64,000 bases of DNA from an uncultured Clostridia bacterium. GTDB taxonomy: Bacteria > Bacillota > Clostridia > TANB77 > CAG-508. The first letter of the stretch is position 1; every line of letters starts with the position of its first letter. The translations under genes and the position numbers were made by a program. Below, in pieces: positions 1-22,813 of the stretch. Below the pieces are notes generated by a model, which did not search any database, was not told where the DNA came from, and saw nothing but the letters and a program-made list of their open reading frames with translations. The stretch spans positions 31,055 to 95,054 of the forward strand of contig CAKPNJ010000003.1 of assembly GCA_934168365.1 (NCBI GenBank). Direction: 5' to 3'.

Positions 1-47
1 TGAGCTGGTATATTGGATTCGAATATAACACAACAGACCAGACACTA

Positions 48-10018: not shown

Positions 10019-11656
10019 ATGAATATAAAACTAAATACCGAAATATTAGAAGTAGAAGAGAATAAGTCGATTATAGAATTGTTTGATAAAGAAATTGGAG
10101 AAAACAAAAAGATTATTGCTTGTGATATAAATAACGAAATTAAATCTTTAAATTTTATTCCAAAGGAAAATGACAATGTTAATTTTGTAGATGTTACTAG
10201 TAGGGACGGAAGAAGAACATATATTAGAGGGCTTTTATTCATAATGAGTATGGCTTTTGATAAATGCTATCCAGAAGCTTTTCTATCAGTAAATTATCAA
10301 TTAACAAATGCTATGTATTGCGAAGTAGATAATTTAGAAGTTACAAAAGAAATGATAGAAAATGTTAATAACAAAATGAAAGAATTAGTAGCTAAAAGTT
10401 TACCAATAAAAAAAGTTGAAATGACAAAAGAAGAGGCTATAAAATTCTATGAAAAGGAAAATAGTTTAAGGGGAATATTACAATTAGATAATGAGCAAAA
10501 AAAAGGAGTTTCTTTATATTTTTGTGAAGATTATTATAATTATTTCTATGGAGTAATGCCTATAGATACAAGTTATATAAATGTATTTGATATTATTCCA
10601 TATAATGATGGATTCTTATTACGTTATCCAGATAAAGAAAATCCAGAGGTATTAGAGCCTGGGCTAGTAAGTAAAAAAATGATTTCAACTTTAGATGAAT
10701 ACAAAGATATTCATAGAGTATTAGATGTAAACACAATATATAAGTTGAATAAACAAATCAGAGAAGGAAAGTCTGCTGAACTTGTACTATTGGCAGAAGC
10801 TTTACACGAAAAAAAGATTTCCGATATAGCAGATAATGTTGTAAAAAGAAAAAATGTAAAAGTAATTCTAATTGCAGGTCCATCATCATCTGGAAAAACT
10901 ACATTTGCTAAAAGACTTGGAATTCAATTAAGATTAAATGGTCTAAAACCAGTGACTATATCTGTTGACGATTATTTTGTTGAAAGAGAACAAACACCTC
11001 TAGATGAAAATGGAAAATATAATTTCGAATGTATAGAAGCAATTGATTTAAAACTATTTAATGAACATTTAACGACTTTATTAAATGGTGGAGAAATACT
11101 TTGCCCAACCTTTGATTTTAAAGAAGGAAGCAAAAAGTATACAGGCAAGAAAATGAGATTAGCAGAAGATGAAGTTCTTGTAATTGAAGGAATTCACTGC
11201 CTAAATGATAAACTAACAGAATCAATTCCAAAAGAATTAAAATACAAAATTTACATTAGTGCGTTAACTGTTCTTAATGTTGACTACTATAATAGAATAT
11301 CTACAACAGATAGCAGATTAATTAGAAGAATGGTAAGAGACCATAATTTTAGAGGCTATACTGCTATGCATACCTTACAAATGTGGAATTCTGTAAATAA
11401 AGGCGAAAATCAATATATTTTCCCATTCCAAGATGAAGCAGATAGTATGTTTAATACTTCTTTAATATATGAACTATGTGTATTAAAAAAATATGCCTTA
11501 CCAATGTTACAAGAAATTGATAATTCTTATGTAGAATATGCAGAAGCTAAGAGACTATGTGAATTTTTAAAGTATTTTGAAGATATTGAAGATAAGTATG
11601 TTCCTCAAAATTCATTGCTTCGCGAATTTATTGGAGGCAGTATTTTCGAATACTAA
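10019..11656 (+). CDS. Uridine kinase / phosphoribulokinase-family P-loop NTPase with an N-terminal TGS-like domain. A nucleoside-kinase-like protein.
   Basis: Walker A LIAGPSSSGKTTFAKRLG. Overall architecture matches the ~550-aa clostridial uridine-kinase-like proteins. Confidence 0.6.
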   Translation: MNIKLNTEILEVEENKSIIELFDKEIGENKKIIACDINNEIKSLNFIPKENDNVNFVDVTSRDGRRTYIRGLLFIMSMAFDKCYPEAFLSVNYQLTNAMYCEVDNLEVTKEMIENVNNKMKELVAKSLPIKKVEMTKEEAIKFYEKENSLRGILQLDNEQKKGVSLYFCEDYYNYFYGVMPIDTSYINVFDIIPYNDGFLLRYPDKENPEVLEPGLVSKKMISTLDEYKDIHRVLDVNTIYKLNKQIREGKSAELVLLAEALHEKKISDIADNVVKRKNVKVILIAGPSSSGKTTFAKRLGIQLRLNGLKPVTISVDDYFVEREQTPLDENGKYNFECIEAIDLKLFNEHLTTLLNGGEILCPTFDFKEGSKKYTGKKMRLAEDEVLVIEGIHCLNDKLTESIPKELKYKIYISALTVLNVDYYNRISTTDSRLIRRMVRDHNFRGYTAMHTLQMWNSVNKGENQYIFPFQDEADSMFNTSLIYELCVLKKYALPMLQEIDNSYVEYAEAKRLCEFLKYFEDIEDKYVPQNSLLREFIGGSIFEY

Positions 11657-12047: not shown

Positions 12048-12800
12048 TTAAATATACCCAAAAGTGCGAAGTTTGTTTATTGAATTGATTAATTCATCTT
12101 TTCTTTTTACTTCAATAAGTACATCTAAATCATGCTTATTACAGAAATCTAATTCTTCCTTAATATCAAGGATACCTGTAAATAGTTCTTGATGATCTTT
12201 GAAACCATTATAATCGTGTAAATGAACATGTTTAATTTTATCTTTATATTTTAGAAATTCTTCTTTAGCGATATTACCATATCTAATATTATGTCCTAAA
12301 TCTAATGTGAAAAATAAATTATCATAATTTGCAATAATTTCAATTGCTTTTAAAGTATAAGATTCTATTTTTACATTCTCAAATAAGATAGTAGCATTAT
12401 ATTTACTTGCTATTTTAGAAAGTGCATTACATGAATTTTTATATGCATCCAAATATTCACTCAAGTATTCCTCGTAAATAAATATTTTTTTATCTGGTAA
12501 CGAAAAATGAATACCGGGGTCAAGATGAATATTATATTTGAGAATATGGTGCTTTGTACCAAAAGATATAATTCTTTCTATTTCATTTAAATAAAACTTG
12601 CGTAAAGAATCATTTAATTCACCAACATCAATTTTTTCTGATAGATGAATAGTAAAAGCATTGCTATCTAATAGAGTGGTATCTAAGCTTTCTAAGAAGC
12701 AGTATGGTATATCTAGATTTAATTCAATAAAATCCAAATTAAGCTCTTGAGCTAGTTTCACATTTTCTTCTAAAGAATGAAGTTCGACTAATATAGGCAT
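12048..12800 (-). CDS. Sugar phosphate isomerase/epimerase (xylose-isomerase-like TIM barrel, AP endonuclease 2 fold).
   Basis: TLDLGH and HVHLHD metal-ligand motifs. GGAGG RBS upstream of the start. Confidence 0.55.
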   Translation of the reverse strand: MPILVELHSLEENVKLAQELNLDFIELNLDIPYCFLESLDTTLLDSNAFTIHLSEKIDVGELNDSLRKFYLNEIERIISFGTKHHILKYNIHLDPGIHFSLPDKKIFIYEEYLSEYLDAYKNSCNALSKIASKYNATILFENVKIESYTLKAIEIIANYDNLFFTLDLGHNIRYGNIAKEEFLKYKDKIKHVHLHDYNGFKDHQELFTGILDIKEELDFCNKHDLDVLIEVKRKDELINSINKLRTFGYI

Positions 12801-12950
12801 TCCGAAATCTCATATAATTGTTACCTCCATTATAAAAATTTATTAGTATTGTATCACAAGAGTGTTATTTAAGCAATAAATTACCCCCGTTATTTTATAG
12901 AAAAACAGACAGAAGTATACAAAAATTTAAAATTAAGTTTAGAAAATATA

Positions 12951-12979
12951 TTGACAAAAATAAAAATAGTACATACAAT
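12951..12979 (+). promoter_or_regulatory. Near-consensus sigma-A promoter (TTGACA, 17 bp, TACAAT) driving the cysS leader.
   Basis: ttgaca 12951-12956, tacaat 12974-12979. Confidence 0.6.
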
Positions 12980-13005
12980 AATATAAATTGAAAGGAAAGA
13001 TTCTA

Positions 13006-13047
13006 ATGTTATTAAAAAATATAATTTCTAATTGTTGTTGTAGGTGA
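13006..13047 (+). CDS. 13-codon leader peptide MLLKNIISNCCCR. Three consecutive UGU Cys codons immediately before the UGA stop. Candidate Cys-sensing attenuator peptide for cysS.
   Basis: AAAGGAAAG RBS 7 nt upstream. Lies between the promoter and an intrinsic terminator, 240 nt upstream of cysS. Confidence 0.55.
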   Translation: MLLKNIISNCCCR

Positions 13048-13085
13048 TATACTCTGTCTGTTGTAGACATGAGTGTTAATAAGTA

Positions 13086-13163
13086 TGCCTACAGTAGAAA
13101 TTATATTAATAATATAGTAAAAGACTATGTAGGCAAAGCAAATGGACACATAGTCTTTTTTTG
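13086..13163 (+). promoter_or_regulatory. Attenuator RNA: antiterminator segment tgcctacagtag (13086-13097) and intrinsic terminator agactatgt / acatagtct plus T7 (13122-13163).
   Basis: Segment 13086-13097 can pair with either the Cys-codon/stop region (13035-13046) or the terminator 5' arm (13125-13135). Confidence 0.5.
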
Positions 13164-13285
13164 ATAAAAAATAAGAGAAGAATGGAATTACTAAATTATG
13201 AATATTGCTAAAAAGTAATTAATTATAATAAATTTAAGATTAAATTAATAAAATAGTCTAGTACTAATTAAGGAGGTTATTTACA

Positions 13286-14758
13286 ATGAAGATTACAAAT
13301 TCTATGAGTGGCAAAAAAGAAGAATTCGTACCTTTGAAAAAGGGAGAAGTCAAAATGTACGCATGCGGTATTACTGTATATGATTTGAGTCATATTGGTC
13401 ATGCAAGGCAAGCTATTGACTATGCTATGATTACAGATTATCTTAGATACAGAGGTTACCACGTAACGTATGTACGCAACTATACTGACGTTGATGACAA
13501 AATTATTAAACGTGCAAATGAGTTAGGAAGAGATGCTTTGGAATTTTCTGCTGAACAAATTAGAGAAACTGAAAAAGATATGGCAGCTTTGCATGTTACA
13601 GATGCGGATATTAACACAAAGGCATCAGAGTATATTCCACAGATTATAAAAGTTGTGGAAGGTCTGATAAAAAAAGGGCACGCATATGTAACAGAAAAAA
13701 GAGATGTGTATTTTTCAGTAAAAACTGATAAGAATTACGGAAAATTGTCTCACAGAAAAGTAGAAGAATTACGAAATGGAGTACGTATTGAGGTTGATGA
13801 AGAAAAAGAAGATCCAGTTGACTTTGCTTTGTGGAAATCAGCAAAACCGGGAGAAATTTATTGGGAATCCCCTTGGGGAAAAGGAAGACCTGGTTGGCAT
13901 ATCGAATGCTCAGCTATGGCATTAGATACTCTTGGCGAAACCATTGACATTCATGGTGGAGGAAGAGATTTGATTTTTCCACATCACGAAAATGAAATTG
14001 CACAAAGTGAATCTTTAACTGGAAAAACTTTTGCAAACTATTGGAGCCATTGCGGTCTTATAAAGATTAATGGACAGAAGATGGGAAAATCTTTAGGAAA
14101 TTCCCTAACTATAAGAGATGCTTTAGCAAAATATAATTATGAAGTTATTAGATATACAATACTTTCTAAGCATTACACATCTGACATTGATCTTCACGAT
14201 AGTGATTTTCAACTCGCAGAAGGACACACATACTATTTTTATAGTACAATTAAAGAAATGCAAAAATTCATTTTAGACAATCATGGAGATGAAACATCTG
14301 AAGTCTTAAATGACGAAATTCCTAACACTATTATTTCAAAATTTATTGAAGTGATGGATGATGATTTTAATTCTGCTGTTGCGATTGCAAATTTGCATAC
14401 AATTTTTAAATATGTAAATAACATCATGAAAACAGCAAAGAAAGATAACAGACAAATAGTAGCACATACTTTGGCTAAGATTTTGAAAGACATGAAAGAA
14501 GTCTATGGAATTTTAGGCCTTTTTAAGCAAGAGCCAGAAAAATTTCTTTCAGAGATGAAAGTGAAACATCTTAAACAGTTGAATATTGATGTGGAAGACA
14601 TTGAAAAACAGATTTTAGAAAGAACCGAAGCAAAGAAAAGCAAAGATTTTGAAAAAGCCGATTCAATTAGAGATAACCTTGATAAAAGAGGCATCCTTTT
14701 AAAGGATACAAGAGAAGGTACTATTTGGGATCTGAAACTACTTTATAGTTTTAATTAA
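13286..14758 (+). CDS. cysS: Cysteinyl-tRNA synthetase.
   Basis: HIGH motif (SHIGHAR), KMSKS-type motif (KMGKS), zinc-binding Cys residues. AAGGAGG RBS. Confidence 0.95.
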
Positions 14759-19968: not shown

Positions 19969-21255
19969 ATGAAAAAGATAATAAAAAGTATATTTTTAAT
20001 TATATTTGCAACTGTTACAATATCGTTATTTTCAAAAGTTGAGGCAGCATCAGCAACAATAAGTGCAAATAAAACAACAGCAACAGTTGGAGATAGCGTA
20101 AAAGTCACAGTAACTGTAAATGCGGCAGCATGGAATATAAATGTATCTGGAAGTGCTTCTGGCAGTATAGTTGGATTCAATAGTGATGCGGAAAATCAAA
20201 CAACAACAAAGACATATTCTATAAATACAAGCAAAGCCGGAAAATATAGTGTATCTATTTCAGGAGATATAACAGATGCTTCTGCAACAACTCCTGACAA
20301 AATAAACAAATCTGTTACAGTAACAGTAAAAGCTAAGTCAACATCAAGTTCTACTAACAATAACTCTAATTCAAACTCAACTTCAAATAGTGGAAGTACT
20401 AAAAAAGAACCTAAATTTACAAGTGTTAATCAAACAATGTATACAACAGGAGAAGTAAATATAAGAAAAAGCTATTCAACATCTAGTGCAATAATAAAAA
20501 CAGTAGAAAAAGGAACTAAAATTACTAGAGTAGGAATAGGAGATAATGGTTGGAGTAAAATTACATATAATGGTCAAACAGCCTACATTAGTAGTTCACT
20601 ATTAACTAAAACTAAACCAGCTGAAGATAAACCAAAAACAGAAGAACCAAAAAGCAATACTGCAAATCAAACTACAAATACTGATGTAACAAACAATGAA
20701 GATGTTAATAACACAACAGAACTTGTTAATAATGAAGTTGATAATTCTAACACAGACAATACAAATGCAGTATTAGGACTATCTAAATTAGAAATTGCAG
20801 GAGTAAACTTTTCAGAAGGATTTGACCCTTCAATACATTCATACACTTTAAAATTAAATTTCTTTGTAAAAGACTTAAATATCACAGCAGAAGCTAATAA
20901 AACAGATGCTAAAGTTGAAATAATAGGAAATGAAAATTTTGAAGCAGGGGAGAATAATGTTACAATATTAGTTAGTTCAGCTGATAACAAAGAAACAGCA
21001 ACATATCAAATAAAAGTAACAATACCATCAGAAGTAGCAAGTTCACCACAAAATAATATTCAATTTTATCTAATGTGTGGAACTATCATATTAGCAGCAA
21101 TTGTAGTAATTGGAATAATCGTTTCAATATATAAAAAGAAAAATAAAAGTGGAGTAGATTATAAAGATTCTAAAACAGATGATGATATGATAGACTCCTA
21201 TACAGATATAAAACCTAAAAAAGAAAAAGTAAAAAGTGGTAAACACTCAAATTAA
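19969..21255 (+). CDS. Cell-surface protein: signal peptide, Ser/Thr/Asn-rich spacer, SH3b domain, cadherin-like beta-sandwich domain, C-terminal transmembrane anchor.
   Basis: LGLSKLEIAGVNFSEGFDPSIHSYTLKL matches the cadherin-like domain pattern. C-terminal hydrophobic helix followed by a KKKNK stop-transfer. Confidence 0.6.
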   Translation: MKKIIKSIFLIIFATVTISLFSKVEAASATISANKTTATVGDSVKVTVTVNAAAWNINVSGSASGSIVGFNSDAENQTTTKTYSINTSKAGKYSVSISGDITDASATTPDKINKSVTVTVKAKSTSSSTNNNSNSNSTSNSGSTKKEPKFTSVNQTMYTTGEVNIRKSYSTSSAIIKTVEKGTKITRVGIGDNGWSKITYNGQTAYISSSLLTKTKPAEDKPKTEEPKSNTANQTTNTDVTNNEDVNNTTELVNNEVDNSNTDNTNAVLGLSKLEIAGVNFSEGFDPSIHSYTLKLNFFVKDLNITAEANKTDAKVEIIGNENFEAGENNVTILVSSADNKETATYQIKVTIPSEVASSPQNNIQFYLMCGTIILAAIVVIGIIVSIYKKKNKSGVDYKDSKTDDDMIDSYTDIKPKKEKVKSGKHSN

Positions 21256-21297
21256 AATATAATGTGGAAAAGAAATTTTTCTTTTCCACAAAAATAT

Positions 21298-21373
21298 GCT
21301 GGTATAGCTCAGTTGGTAGAGCAACAGATTCGTAACCTGTAGGTCGGCGGTTCGATTCCGCCTACCAGCTCCA
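21298..21373 (+). tRNA. tRNA, probably tRNA-Thr (anticodon CGU), with encoded CCA.
   Basis: Cloverleaf: GCTGGTA acceptor stem, D-arm GCTC/GAGC, anticodon loop TTCGTAA, T-arm GGCGG-TTCGATT-CCGCC, TACCAGC-T-CCA. One A-C mismatch at positions 31/39. Confidence 0.8.
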
Positions 21374-21424
21374 AATCAAAAGAGAATGGATAGAAAATTA
21401 TGTCTATCCATTCTCTTTTGATTT
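21374..21424 (+). terminator. Perfect 21-bp stem hairpin after the tRNA (aaatcaaaagagaatggatag / ctatccattctcttttgattt).
   Basis: Read directly. Homologous to the hairpin at 21755-21799. Confidence 0.6.
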
Positions 21425-21576
21425 GATAAATTAACATATTATGGAACATCAACGAAAATTGCAAAATTATGTAAATAGTGATATAATAATTTTATTATTG
21501 TTCGTGGCTATGCGAACTATAATAAAATAGCCGAGTGTGGCAAATTCTCAAAAACAATTGTTAGGAGGATGAAAAA

Positions 21577-21744
21577 ATGCAGTACAAAGTTGTTCTTGAC
21601 AAGGCTTTAATACTACCTGCCGCAGTAGAAAGAGTGGAAATGAATGTGCAAAAAATGTGTGATGAAGGTTGGCAACCTCAGGGAAGTATCTATATATTCA
21701 ACGATGGAAAATATATTTGTGTCTGTCAGGCAATGGTGAAATAA
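21577..21744 (+). CDS. Small 55-aa protein MQYKVVLDKALILPAAVERVEMNVQKMCDEGWQPQGSIYIFNDGKYICVCQAMVK. Function unknown.
   Basis: TTAGGAGGATG RBS with 8-nt spacing. Flanked by the two related hairpins. Confidence 0.45.
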   Translation: MQYKVVLDKALILPAAVERVEMNVQKMCDEGWQPQGSIYIFNDGKYICVCQAMVK

Positions 21745-21754
21745 CTGCAAAATG

Positions 21755-21799
21755 AAAAAAGAGAAGGTATAGAAAATTATTTCTATATCTTCTCTTTTT
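21755..21799 (+). terminator. Hairpin terminator homologous to the one at 21374-21424, with compensatory base changes.
   Basis: aaaaagagaaggtatagaa / ttctatatcttctcttttt. Confidence 0.55.
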
Positions 21800-21907
21800 A
21801 TAGAGGAACTAACATATTATGAAGCCGTGAAAAGTAATAAAAGGTTGCCATTTTTTGCATATTATGGTAAAATATATAAGGATTTAAACAAAAGAGAGGT
21901 TGATTTT

Positions 21908-22813
21908 ATGGGATTTTTTGATAAATTAAAAAATGGTTTAAGTAAAACCAAAAGTTCATTTGATGAAAAGATAAATAATGTATTTAGTAATTTTAGAAAA
22001 GTAGATGAAGAACTTTTAGAAGAATTGGAAGAGGCTCTAATAATGTCAGATGTAGGAGCACAAACATCTACAAAAATTATTTCTAATTTAAGAGATAGAA
22101 TAAAAAAAGAGAAAATTGAAAATGAAGAAGATGTAAGAAATGCACTAAGAGAAGAAATAAAAGCTATTTTAGATGAAGTTGATAATGGTTTAAAATTAGT
22201 AACTCATCCTTCTGTTATTTTAGTAGTAGGGGTAAATGGAGTGGGCAAAACTACTTCTATAGGTAAAATAGCTAATCGTTTAAAACAAGATGGTAAAAAG
22301 GTAGTAATTGCCGCAGCAGATACATTTAGAGCAGCAGCAGTAGAACAATTAGAAATATGGGCTAACAGAGCTGGTTGCGATATAGTAAAAAAAGAAGAAG
22401 GTACAGACCCTGCGTCAGTTGTTTTTGATGCAATTCAAATAACTAAACAAAAAAATGCAGATGTTTTGATATGTGATACAGCCGGAAGATTACACAACAA
22501 AAAATATTTGATGGACGAGCTTGTAAAAATAAAAAAAGTAATAGATAAAGAACTACCAGAAAGTTCAAAAGAAGTTTTGATGGTTCTTGATGCAACAACA
22601 GGGCAAAATGCTATTTCACAAGTAAAAGCATTTAAAGAAACAGTTGATATAAATGGCTTAATATTAACAAAACTAGATGGAACAGCTAAAGGTGGAGTAG
22701 TAGTTGGTATAGTTGCAGAAAATCAAATGCCAGTTAAATTTGTTGGTGTAGGCGAACAAATTGACGATATGGAAATTTTTAATAGTACAGACTTTGTAAA
22801 TGCTTTAATTTAA
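21908..22813 (+). CDS. ftsY: Signal recognition particle receptor FtsY.
   Basis: SRP-GTPase motifs: GVNGVGKTTSIGK, DTAGR, TKLDG. The ORF track starts at GTG 21827; the ATG at 21908 (MGFFDKLK, RBS AGAGAGG) is the conventional start. Confidence 0.9.
   Translation: MGFFDKLKNGLSKTKSSFDEKINNVFSNFRKVDEELLEELEEALIMSDVGAQTSTKIISNLRDRIKKEKIENEEDVRNALREEIKAILDEVDNGLKLVTHPSVILVVGVNGVGKTTSIGKIANRLKQDGKKVVIAAADTFRAAAVEQLEIWANRAGCDIVKKEEGTDPASVVFDAIQITKQKNADVLICDTAGRLHNKKYLMDELVKIKKVIDKELPESSKEVLMVLDATTGQNAISQVKAFKETVDINGLILTKLDGTAKGGVVVGIVAENQMPVKFVGVGEQIDDMEIFNSTDFVNALI

Follow-up and report, generated by a model that had tools for sequence, protein, structure and literature searches.

Transcription attenuators read by a translating ribosome are known from Proteobacteria, i.e. 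trpL, hisL, pheL, thrL, leuL and ilvL (Rfam RF00513, RF00514, RF01859, RF00506, RF00512), and the cysS and cysE genes of Firmicutes are typically controlled by T-boxes. In Rhodobacterales, the uORFC-8-2 motif is a predicted ribosome-mediated attenuator of cysS, in which two tandem Cys codons, mostly UGC, at positions 14-15 of an upstream ORF lie inside the first of two prominent stems and are followed by a terminator stem with a U-run; this alphaproteobacterial motif stands before cysS only (Brewer et al. 2021, PMC8632094). An attenuator was also proposed for the leaderless cysS mRNA of Deinococcus deserti, whose 5' end encodes a 10-aa leader peptide with two Cys and for which no conserved alternative helices were reported (PMC4007540). 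Mycobacterial leaderless polycysteine short ORFs form the 'Cys ribulon', where stalling at a run of Cys codons senses how much cysteine is available and several cysteine-related operons are regulated together (Canestrari et al., bioRxiv 10.1101/834739; also PMC1262725). Finally, a His leader peptide was predicted in Bacilli before hisS paralogues and hisZ, replacing the T-box (Naville & Gautheret 2010, PMC2965389).

In this work, we analysed a 64-kb stretch of DNA from an uncultured Clostridia bacterium (hereafter the window), in which the element upstream of cysS is, with a probability that we put at about 0.85, a ribosome-mediated (trp/his-type) transcription attenuator sensing charged tRNA-Cys. 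Its likeness to the proteobacterial attenuators lies in a translated short ORF in which several codons for the sensed amino acid stand in a row, a segment 1 situated within this ORF, mutually exclusive helices 1:2, 2:3 and 3:4, and an intrinsic terminator ahead of the structural genes. However, it has no sequence or covariance-model similarity to them, belongs to another phylum (uncultured low-GC Clostridia), senses Cys, has its stop only 1-2 codons after the sensor codons, carries an extra conserved hairpin (P) between ORF and segment 2, and controls an aminoacyl-tRNA synthetase gene plus biosynthesis genes. Compared with uORFC-8-2, it has 3-4 Cys codons, five interacting segments in addition to P, and a place before cysK and cysE as well; its Cys codons, at ORF positions 9-13, are largely unpaired or at a helix end, which sets the two apart by description. 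With D. deserti it shares a cysS mRNA whose 5' end encodes a short Cys peptide, in a different phylum and in a transcript that is not leaderless. [quoted passage not shown] The Bacilli His leader is likewise a predicted Firmicute attenuator beside a synthetase-family gene where a T-box would be expected, but it senses His, occurs in Bacillus and not in Clostridia, and is apparently unrelated in sequence. Position, terminator/antiterminator output and the tRNA-Cys charging signal are those of a T-box (RF00230), which in contrast binds uncharged tRNA directly and has no ORF, and whose defining motifs are absent from the element.

A previous annotation made from the letters of the window (hereafter the sequence-only reading) had judged such a mechanism unusual for Firmicutes. 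This holds insofar as the literature searched contained no report of a Cys leader peptide in Clostridia, or for Cys in Firmicutes; it is tempered by the leaders predicted in Rhodobacterales, D. deserti and, for His, Bacilli. The element was not found in Rfam 15, nor described in the literature searched. It is probably a new family within a class of switch that is already well known, Cys leaders before cysS having been predicted elsewhere.

Layout and folding of the cysS leader

Every leader feature named by the sequence-only reading was found in its place when the sequence was checked, including the promoter, the ribosome-binding site, the 13-codon ORF with UGU UGU UGU before its stop, and the terminator with its seven U residues (Table 1). 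Segment 1 is separated from the first Cys codon by 2 nt, hairpin P begins 1 nt past the leader stop codon, and 123 nt separate the terminator from cysS. The latter is probably transcribed alone, since the next ORF lies on the opposite strand. Neither cysK nor cysE was found in the window, where a nhmmer profile of the scaffold detected no copy beyond the single leader. A simple terminator scan of 12700-13400, which accepts loops of 3-8 nt only, returned no terminator because the loop here is 17 nt long. A second Cys mini-ORF past the terminator (MELLNYEYC, 13182-13211) is not conserved even in near-identical relatives and was taken as a chance occurrence; a second Cys mini-ORF after the terminator was also seen at two related loci (L090 and L117).

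Table 1 Coordinates of the leader elements and of cysS in the window
Feature	Position	Strand	Details
Sigma-A type promoter, TTGACA-17-TACAAT	12951..12979	+	11/12 consensus positions matched; TTGACA 12951-12956, spacer 17 nt, TACAAT 12974-12979
Shine-Dalgarno-like ribosome-binding site of leader ORF, GAAAGGAAAG	12990..12999	+	
Leader ORF, MLLKNIISNCCCR then stop	13006..13047	+	13 codons
Segment 1, inside leader ORF	13018..13030	+	Partner: segment 2b (minimum-energy fold)
Three Cys sensor codons, UGU UGU UGU	13033..13041	+	
Hairpin P	13049..13076	+	Outer stem 13049-13054/13071-13076; inner stem 13055-13060/13064-13069
Segment 2a (C), UGCCUACAGUAG	13086..13097	+	Partners: ORF end 13038-13045, P 3' arm 13058-13071, or segment 3
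Segment 2b	13095..13116	+	Complementary to segment 1 and ORF start
Intrinsic terminator	13119..13162	+	12-bp stem 13119-13130/13148-13159; 17-nt loop; U7 13156-13162
Segment 3 (D), CUAUGUAGGC	13125..13134	+	Antiterminator 3' half; overlaps terminator 5' arm
cysS ribosome-binding site, AAGGAGG	13270..13276	+	
cysS, cysteine--tRNA ligase (regulated gene)	13286..14758	+	TIGR00435, 522.8 bits (cut-off 340), E = 9e-157

The whole leader folds at -45.5 kcal/mol (z = -4.8 against shuffled versions) and the terminator at -12.9 kcal/mol (z = -3.9). Between the ORF end (13035-13046) and 13086-13097, the helix of about 12 bp with G-U pairs that had been suggested is available (12 possible pairs, 5 of them G-U), and 8 of its pairs are present in the minimum-energy fold (ViennaRNA). 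Helix 1:2 is far longer than had been seen: in the same fold, 13018-13030 (ORF codons 5-9) is joined to 13095-13107, and a further 9 bp connect the start region (13006-13014) to 13108-13116. The antiterminator helix is likewise real, with its single bulge, and comprises 10 pairs (13087-13097 with 13125-13134).

The sequence-only reading had also put weight on the rarity of Cys. Its estimate of about 1 % of codons is borne out (1.1 % of the 17,841 codons in the long ORFs of the window), and CCC does not occur in any of these ORFs. However, 16 copies of TGYTGYTGY are present when every frame of the window is counted, most of them in antisense orientation to repetitive coding sequence, and a chance estimate from this string was rejected. 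As the string alone proves nothing, we relied on comparative evidence, which supports the claim in another way: the Cys run is kept in 38 of 39 related elements.

Related leaders and covariation of their helices

The element was found upstream of cysS, cysK-cysS, cysE-cysK(-cysS) or cysK in 22 of 45 related genomes of uncultured Clostridia, i.e. those with a CysS at least 57 % identical. About half of the close relatives have no such leader before cysS, which counts against the model. Metagenomes were searched with a pattern built only from the hairpin P/antiterminator region, leaving out the ORF and the U-run. Among its 44 matches, 5 were unrelated (L093, L099, L106, L110 and L123, GC-rich repeats with neither ORF nor U-run) and were discarded, and 39 were related elements. 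A complete ORF with CCC or CCCC was present in 37 of the latter; another was cut at the contig end (ending CCMK before the stop), and the last had RRRR in place of the Cys run. In the contigs of L086, L087, L091, L094, L095, L115 and L116, the leader is the same as that of the window or almost so. The genes 3' of the element were cysS, a cysK-like gene, cysE-cysK-cysS or cysE-cysK. A nhmmer profile run over 124 loci recovered all Cys leaders, plus L097 (Arg) and, weakly, L004 (His/Arg). Such sister elements, with RRRR or HHHRR on the same scaffold, lie upstream of non-cysteine genes, namely a GNAT acetyltransferase, or a GNAT gene and an ArgE-like deacylase gene. All organisms concerned are uncultured and represented by metagenome-assembled genomes.

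Alignment of these leaders revealed the conserved mini-ORF with consecutive Cys codons and the compensatory changes in the helices for which the sequence-only reading had called. In 35/39 leaders, a promoter that deviates from consensus at no more than 2 positions precedes the leader ORF by 21-33 nt, and 37/39 have an SD-like 4-mer. The 38 distinct Cys leaders have ORFs of 12-16 codons that start with ATG (36) or TTG (2); the most constant feature of these ORFs is the Cys run, located 1-2 codons ahead of the stop at the same position in 38 of the 39 elements and made of 3-4 codons in all 38 Cys leaders, with TGT/TGC variation only.

Covariation was scored on a MAFFT alignment made without reference to any structure; it already yielded clear pair counts and was kept because a fitted alignment would bias them. 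In the free state, 84 % of cells were paired, against 28-54 % when the partners were slid, and 16 pairs showed double changes. All helices retain their pairing through compensatory changes, including the ORF/segment-2 helix, so that the 1:2 / 2:3 / 3:4 arrangement that had been postulated is present and covaries in each of its parts. The segment 1/2b helix has 8 pairs changed on both sides; double changes affect 3 pairs of hairpin P (87 % of cells paired; stem variants include GUCUA/UAGAC, UACCUA/UAGGUA, AUCUA/UAGAU and GUGCC/GGCAC), 4 of the antiterminator (94.4 %; e.g. GCCUACA/UGUAGGC, GUCUACA/UGUAGAC and GCCUGCA/UGCAGG) and 5 of the terminator (89.6 %). Hairpin P and the antiterminator helix were also the unguided choice of RNAalifold. 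For every helix, duplex energies were better with a leader's own arms than with arms from different leaders; for segment 1/2b the means were -12.7 kcal/mol and -6.9 (sd 3.0), respectively.

Switching model and competing explanations

The element combines what characterizes the attenuator class: an SD-led short ORF near a promoter, sensor codons matching the regulated genes, an intrinsic terminator between ORF and gene, an antiterminator sharing a strand with the terminator, and an anti-antiterminator whose 5' strand can be reached by a ribosome halted on the sensor codons. The attenuator reading is supported by these parts, by their conservation and covariation, by the cysteine genes that accompany them, and by thermodynamic folding with a simulated ribosome footprint; ribosome stalling, termination at the hairpin in vivo and the timing are what we infer from them.

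According to this model, transcription would start just 3' of 12979 and the 13-codon leader ORF would be loaded with a ribosome. With ample Cys-tRNA(Cys), this ribosome would clear the three UGU codons, terminate at 13045-13047 and depart, so that the ORF (segment 1 and its end) could pair with segment 2 (13086-13116); segment 3, left free, would combine with segment 4 into the terminator, halting RNA polymerase at the U-run (13156-13162), ahead of cysS. Under a shortage of Cys-tRNA(Cys), the ribosome would stall with a UGU codon in the A site, covering segment 1 and the ORF end; segment 2a (GCCUACA) would then form the antiterminator with segment 3 (UGUAGGC), the terminator would be blocked and cysS would be transcribed.

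Footprints were simulated on 39 leaders, including transcripts ending before the 3' arm of the terminator. In these shortened transcripts, the antiterminator formed in 9/39 free leaders, in 39/39 when the first Cys codon occupied the A site and in 29-38/39 when the last one did; the minimum-energy fold of the full-length free RNA contained the terminator in 39/39. This is the response that the sequence-only reading had anticipated for a masked leader. With a stalled ribosome on the full-length RNA, about half of the leaders retained the terminator as their minimum-energy state, which implies that the switch must be kinetic. With the ribosome at the stop codon, the antiterminator still formed in the minimum-energy folds of 20-25/39 leaders; termination under Cys sufficiency would thus depend either on ribosome release and refolding or on an unproven relay through hairpin P.

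This relay bears on a caveat that the sequence-only reading had attached to its own model, i.e. that the stop codon immediately follows the Cys codons. Hairpin P, lying directly after the stop and with a 3' arm able to pair with segment 2a, may answer it. It starts 1-4 nt past the stop, and a ribosome at the first Cys codon would remain short of it; a terminating ribosome would melt its base, freeing the P 3' arm, which could keep segment 2a from segment 3. P may also act as a pause hairpin. The P 3' arm is complementary to segment 2a in all leaders, but own arms (-14.4) are poorly discriminated from those of different leaders (-12.7) and an A.C mismatch occurs in 18/39 leaders; we put this pairing forward as a tentative hypothesis and not as a finding.

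Three other explanations were weighed. The conserved structure might be an RNA that binds a ligand, a tRNA or a protein (a new riboswitch or T-box-like element), with an incidental mini-ORF, as could be suspected from the sequences of P and segment 2a (ACUCU...GUAG..AUGAGU; GCCUACA), which are conserved beyond base-pairing needs, and from the usual T-box control of Firmicute cysS/cysE. Rfam speaks against it. At gathering score, the only match in the whole window was one tRNA, with no T-box, and 10 related loci gave no match; 12800-13400 gave none even at E<=10, whether to a T-box, a riboswitch or a leader family, in agreement with the earlier statement that cysS has no T-box upstream. The T-box model (RF00230), which scores stem I/specifier loop, T-box sequence and antiterminator bulge, did not match the leader, nor did the covariance models of the leader families (Trp, His, Leu, Thr, Phe and others), and 30 related loci likewise gave no T-box, riboswitch or leader-family match in Rfam; the riboswitch or T-box match that would have overturned the sequence-only reading is thus missing from both the leader and these loci. 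Moreover, promoter distance, SD, start, length and stop position of the ORF are conserved, its Cys run changes only synonymously, and changes in segment 1, which is part of the ORF, are matched in segment 2b; and the use of the same scaffold with Arg or His codons before other genes would be unexpected of a ligand-specific aptamer. We regard a binding RNA as extremely unlikely.

Control of translation or mRNA stability, with a stalled ribosome unmasking the downstream ribosome-binding site, would follow the mycobacterial precedent, in which Cys-run short ORFs act in this way (bioRxiv 10.1101/834739), and the start of cysS or cysK does lie about 20 nt or less from the hairpin in a few of the leaders. 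However, the hairpin and U-run are present in 39/39 leaders though the U-run was absent from the search pattern, and the next start codon follows the terminator after anything between a few nt and more than 300 nt, which argues for transcription control and not for masking of the ribosome-binding site; at the 123 nt of the window, no pairing to the cysS SD appeared in the folds. Such control is therefore very unlikely here. Little credence can be given, too, to a functional Cys-rich micropeptide, or to an arrest peptide sensing free cysteine or a metal and not tRNA charging. TnaC-type arrest peptides do sense a free amino acid, and the C-terminal N-C-C-C motif is strongly conserved, but the residues outside the Cys run vary freely while tracking the RNA partner strand, and the 1 or 2 codons after the run are not conserved in identity. 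The apparent peptide conservation (N-I-I/L...) is due to the ORF/segment-2 RNA pairing, these residues changing with the partner strand. In addition, the Arg and His variants retain the RNA scaffold and not the peptide, and a micropeptide gene needs no intrinsic terminator with an overlapping antiterminator.

A probable cysteine regulon in uncultured gut Clostridia

Beyond the attenuator itself, we consider possible, albeit doubtful, a broader reading in which one modular scaffold serves many amino acids by swapping sensor codons, has largely replaced T-boxes, and uses P as a new device. Its parts may be the ORF body with segment 2b, sensor codons 1-2 before the stop, the relay hairpin P, the GCCUACA/UGUAGGC antiterminator and the terminator; the sensor codons seen so far specify Cys, Arg and His, in a lineage of uncultured low-GC gut Clostridia. 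P might then distinguish a ribosome stalled at the sensor codons from one 3-6 nt further, at the stop codon.

The attenuator adds a well-supported family of leader peptides that sense amino acids, one not catalogued before, to a phylum whose synthetase genes are thought to rely on T-boxes. As gene callers miss the short ORF and Rfam has no model of the element, a covariance model built from the 39 sequences would improve annotation. Joining cysS, cysK and cysE, this single element type would amount to a ribosome-read cysteine regulon in uncultured human and animal gut Clostridia, which are abundant though uncultured. To judge from the Arg and His sister elements, a change of sensor codons alone may suffice to re-target the scaffold, which would be useful both for annotating regulons in metagenome-assembled genomes and for designing compact synthetic amino-acid sensors.

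Parts of the cysS leader in the window

From sequence alone, a promoter, a Shine-Dalgarno (SD)-like site, a mini-ORF with three UGU codons and a hairpin with a U-run had been read upstream of cysS, and inspection of the sequence located all of them where that reading had placed them. The terminator ends 123 nt before the cysS start. As the next ORF 3' of cysS lies on the opposite strand, cysS is probably the only gene under the control of this element. Rfam returned a single tRNA at gathering score over the whole 64 kb, and zero matches on 12800-13400 even at E<=10; the region thus contains no T-box, known riboswitch or catalogued leader. This bears out the proposed absence of a T-box, and the covariance-model match that could have refuted the proposal did not appear in the leader.

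Features of the cysS leader region (window positions)
Feature	Position	Strand	Remark
Promoter, TTGACA	12951-12956	+	17-nt spacer; 11/12 consensus positions with TACAAT
Promoter, TACAAT	12974-12979	+	
SD-like site, GAAAGGAAAG	12990-12999	+	precedes leader ORF
Leader ORF, ATG...TGA	13006-13047	+	product MLLKNIISNCCCR
UGU UGU UGU	13033-13041	+	Cys codons of leader ORF
Segment 1	13018-13030		inside ORF
Hairpin P	13049-13076		just after leader stop codon
Segment 2a	13086-13097		
Segment 2b	13095-13116		
Segment 3	13125-13134		
ORF helix, part	13006-13014 with 13108-13116		minimum-energy fold
ORF helix, part	13018-13030 with 13095-13107		minimum-energy fold
ORF helix, part	13038-13045 with 13087-13094		minimum-energy fold
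Antiterminator	13087-13097 with 13125-13134		refolding, ORF strand removed
Terminator stem	13119-13130 with 13148-13159		-12.9 kcal/mol, z = -3.9
Hairpin then seven U	U-run end 13162	+	
AAGGAGG	between terminator and cysS	+	ribosome-binding site of cysS
cysS	13286-14758	+	490-aa ORF; TIGR00435, 522.8 bits vs cut-off 340

The 187-nt leader folds at -45.5 kcal/mol, compared with -28.2 +/- 3.6 for shuffled sequences (z = -4.8). Folding recovered the alternative helices of the 1:2 / 2:3 / 3:4 arrangement sketched in the sequence-only reading, but the minimum-energy fold is more elaborate: helix 1:2 is longer than sketched, nearly the entire ORF being paired with 13086-13116, and it encloses a separate, extra hairpin (P). 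When the ORF strand was removed, the antiterminator formed instead, and its 3' strand overlaps the 5' arm of the terminator.

A small ORF ending in a Cys codon (MELLNYEYC, 13182-13211, + strand) lies between terminator and cysS; it was rejected as a second sensor and is probably a chance ORF, since its stop codon is missing in the near-identical relatives L087 and L091. Elsewhere in the window, in a 545-aa ORF (10019-11656, + strand), residues 76-191 resemble the N-terminus of ThrRS and residues 277-477 form a C-terminal uridine kinase domain. TGYTGYTGY is in excess on the minus strand (12 seen vs about 1 expected), mostly at about 20080-22600, antisense to a repetitive Gln-rich (CAA/CAG-repeat) plus-strand coding sequence.

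Distribution of the element and constraint on the Cys run

A CysS protein scan, using one genome per species, retrieved 80 loci, 45 of which encode a CysS at least 57 % identical to that of the window. Of these, 43 bear a Clostridia or Bacillota label; metagenome-assembled genomes of uncultured organisms make up nearly the whole set, which includes two entries named Clostridium sp. CAG:452 and CAG:343. The Cys-run mini-ORF, whose conservation in related Clostridia had been put forward as a check, is present upstream of cysS in 22/45, ending in N/I/G-C-C-C(-C) plus one or two residues (e.g. MILINIISNCCCCMK, MIRNILLICCCTR, MRKYILINCCCR, MKKENILFNCCCIS and MEKILFTNCCCNI). In four loci (L001, L002, L011 and L022) the leader is 1.3-1.4 kb upstream of cysS because a cysteine-synthase-like gene intervenes, and in L029 the gene order is leader-cysE-cysK-cysS. 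The close relatives L003-L010, L012, L014, L015, L020 and L026 have neither the Cys leader nor a T-box before cysS.

Some of these loci showed further features. In L007, L009 and L010, which have no Cys leader, cysS is located 3' of a valS-like gene, and a long palindrome (caattgtgcaa...ttgcacaattg) occurs once or twice in the spacer, roughly 150 nt before cysS (locus positions ~2290-2480). L003 (1900-2111) and L004 (250-462), whose CysS are 81-82 % identical, have another conserved 5' leader before cysS, some 150 nt long, which includes a promoter and one small hairpin (GCGAUGAACUAAAUACAUCGU) and lacks a Cys ORF, a terminator and any Rfam match. The leader of L002 (CALXXG010000142.1, 'uncultured Rickettsiales bacterium') and its spacing to cysS are identical to those of L011 (uncultured Clostridia), and this label probably arose from mistaken binning or labelling.

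Metagenomes were further searched with a pattern made solely of the 3' arm of P, segment 2a and segment 3, i.e. excluding the ORF and the U-run. Out of 44 matches, 39 were related elements; the others (L093, L099, L106, L110 and L123) were discarded as chance matches on GC-rich contigs, without mini-ORF or U-run, and have a repeat in common. All 39 carry a U-run 3' of the hairpin. In 37, an intact ORF containing CCC or CCCC lies immediately upstream, starting with TTG in three; in L117 the ORF is cut at the contig end, with ...CCMK* visible, and the last of the 39, L097, has MKYINTIVRRRRI on this scaffold. The genes found downstream are cysS, cysK-like or cysE-cysK. The association of the Cys run with this element is far beyond chance. 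Among 38 distinct Cys leaders (ORFs of 12-16 codons), the run is TGTTGTTGT in 18, TGCTGTTGT in 11, TGTTGTTGC in four, TGTTGCTGT in one and a four-codon version in four, i.e. only synonymous changes, and is separated from the stop by one codon (18 leaders) or two (20). A promoter with at most two mismatches to TTGACA-16..18-TATAAT precedes 35/39 distinct leaders, and an SD-like site 37/39. At two loci only, a second CCC mini-ORF lies between the terminator and the cysK/cysE start (L090:2480-2580, + strand, MEQCCCVFYSKKLLFKGE; L117, ~900-1016 in record coordinates, reverse strand, MKKNICCCIKYNKQI), which could represent a second, translational layer of Cys sensing.

Conserved helices and simulated ribosomes

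Compensatory changes, also proposed as a check, were sought after aligning the 39 distinct leaders with MAFFT, without fitting to any structure. In the free-RNA state (segment 1:2b, P and terminator), 84.2 % of cells are paired, versus 28-54 % with partners slid by 1-3 columns; 16 pairs have both sides changed, and none of 500 shuffles reached the observed covariation score. For the antiterminator (GCCUACA/UGUAGGC, GUCUACA/UGUAGAC or GCCUGCA/UGCAGG), 94.4 % of cells are paired, with four doubly changed pairs, and the unaided RNAalifold consensus consists of P and this helix. The pairing of ORF body with segment 2b is replaced wholesale between subfamilies (AUAAUUUCUA/UAGAAAUUAU, AUACUUUUA/GAAAGUAU, AUAUUAAUUAA/UUAAUUAAUGU, AUUAUUCACUAA/UUAGUGAAUAU, AUAUUUGCUAAU/AUUAGCAAAUAU); the peptide (N-I-I/L) thus seems conserved because the RNA pairing is, not the protein. 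Mean duplex energies were lower for a leader's own arms than for arms from different leaders: -12.7 vs -6.9 kcal/mol (sd 3.0) for segment 1:2b, -13.2 vs -9.5 for P, -12.7 vs -10.1 for the antiterminator and -14.1 vs -10.7 for the terminator.

Each of the 39 leaders was then refolded with a masked ribosome footprint that reached, counted from the first base of the A-site codon, 15 nt in the 5' direction and 9-14 nt in the 3' direction; decision-point transcripts were cut just before the 3' arm of the terminator. At this point the antiterminator formed in 39/39 leaders when the A site contained the first sensor codon, in 29-38/39 with the last, in 20-25/39 with the stop codon and in 9/39 free leaders; the terminator formed in 39/39 full-length free RNAs. 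In its two main states, the classical model is thus consistent with the thermodynamics: a ribosome stalled at the Cys codons would lead to read-through into the downstream gene, and the free leader to termination. The stop-codon state is ambiguous and would need ribosome release and refolding, or another device. With comparative and thermodynamic evidence together, the ribosome-mediated Cys attenuation predicted in the sequence-only reading is well supported.

Hairpin P might be such a device. Its stem begins 1-4 nt past the stop codon in all leaders, and in many it is lengthened by pairing of the last Cys codon, trailing codons and stop with the 5' flank of segment 2a (GUAUGAA/UUCAUGC, GUACGA/UCGUGC). 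With the first Cys codon as A-site codon, the footprint ends several nt before P; a ribosome that has reached the stop codon would have to open the base of P, and the freed 3' arm (UUGUAGAcAUGAGU) could keep segment 2a (aUGCCUACA) off segment 3, favouring the terminator. This arm is complementary to segment 2a (88.8 % of cells paired), with an A.C mismatch in 18/39 leaders and energies of -14.4 for own arms vs -12.7 for different leaders, which weakly suggests a relay. The similarity of P to the antiterminator could also by itself give rise to this complementarity. Helix 1:2 of the trp leader synchronises RNA polymerase and ribosome by pausing, and P could equally be a pause hairpin of this kind.

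Sister elements, alternative readings and known systems

Two elements share part order and recognisably similar sequence with the Cys leaders. In L097 (1659-1853, + strand), the leader MKYINTIVRRRRI has four Arg codons (AGA CGU AGA CGU) replacing the Cys run, with hairpin P, a GUCUACA/UGUAGAC antiterminator and a terminator, directly upstream of a GNAT-family acetyltransferase gene (211-218 aa). In L004 (1990-2240, + strand), just 3' of cysS, a weak nhmmer match (E = 3e-5) with its own TTGACA/TATAAT promoter encodes MKLRVFLNKQLHHHRRSL, with three His then two Arg codons, and precedes genes for a GNAT protein and, next to it, an ArgE/DapE-type deacylase (TIGR01892, 208 bits, below cut-off). The two GNAT proteins showed no clear relationship, and the link to arginine biosynthesis is only suggestive. 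One scaffold seems to serve with different sensor codons, which fits the view that these codons set specificity.

These variants, the codon-level constraint on the Cys run and the location of segment 1 inside the ORF do not fit a ligand- or tRNA-binding RNA in which the ORF would be incidental. Nor does a functional or ligand-sensing peptide account for non-Cys residues that all vary freely, tracking the RNA partner strand. Cys-run leader ORFs are known in Actinobacteria (PMC1262725), and those of mycobacteria were demonstrated to act on translation (bioRxiv 10.1101/834739); such control does not fit a universal hairpin and U-run, nor a distance to the downstream start codon ranging from a few nt to more than 300 nt. 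Each defining feature of classical leader-peptide transcription attenuators that is testable by sequence analysis is also found here, and the element is very probably one of them in function.

Two-Cys leaders have been described before cysS in Rhodobacterales (uORFC-8-2, an upstream ORF with terminator; PMC8632094) and in the cysS mRNA of Deinococcus deserti (PMC4007540), and a His leader peptide was predicted as T-box replacement in Bacilli (PMC2965389). No report of a Cys leader in Clostridia or Firmicutes was found in the full-text literature, a coverage that excludes most subscription journals. The element matches none of the leader families catalogued in Rfam and represents a new family within a known type of attenuator, Cys-specific versions of which were already reported in other phyla. 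Absent from Rfam, it links cysS, cysK and cysE in a predicted cysteine regulon of uncultured gut Clostridia and places a Firmicute synthetase gene under predicted leader-peptide control instead of T-box control.
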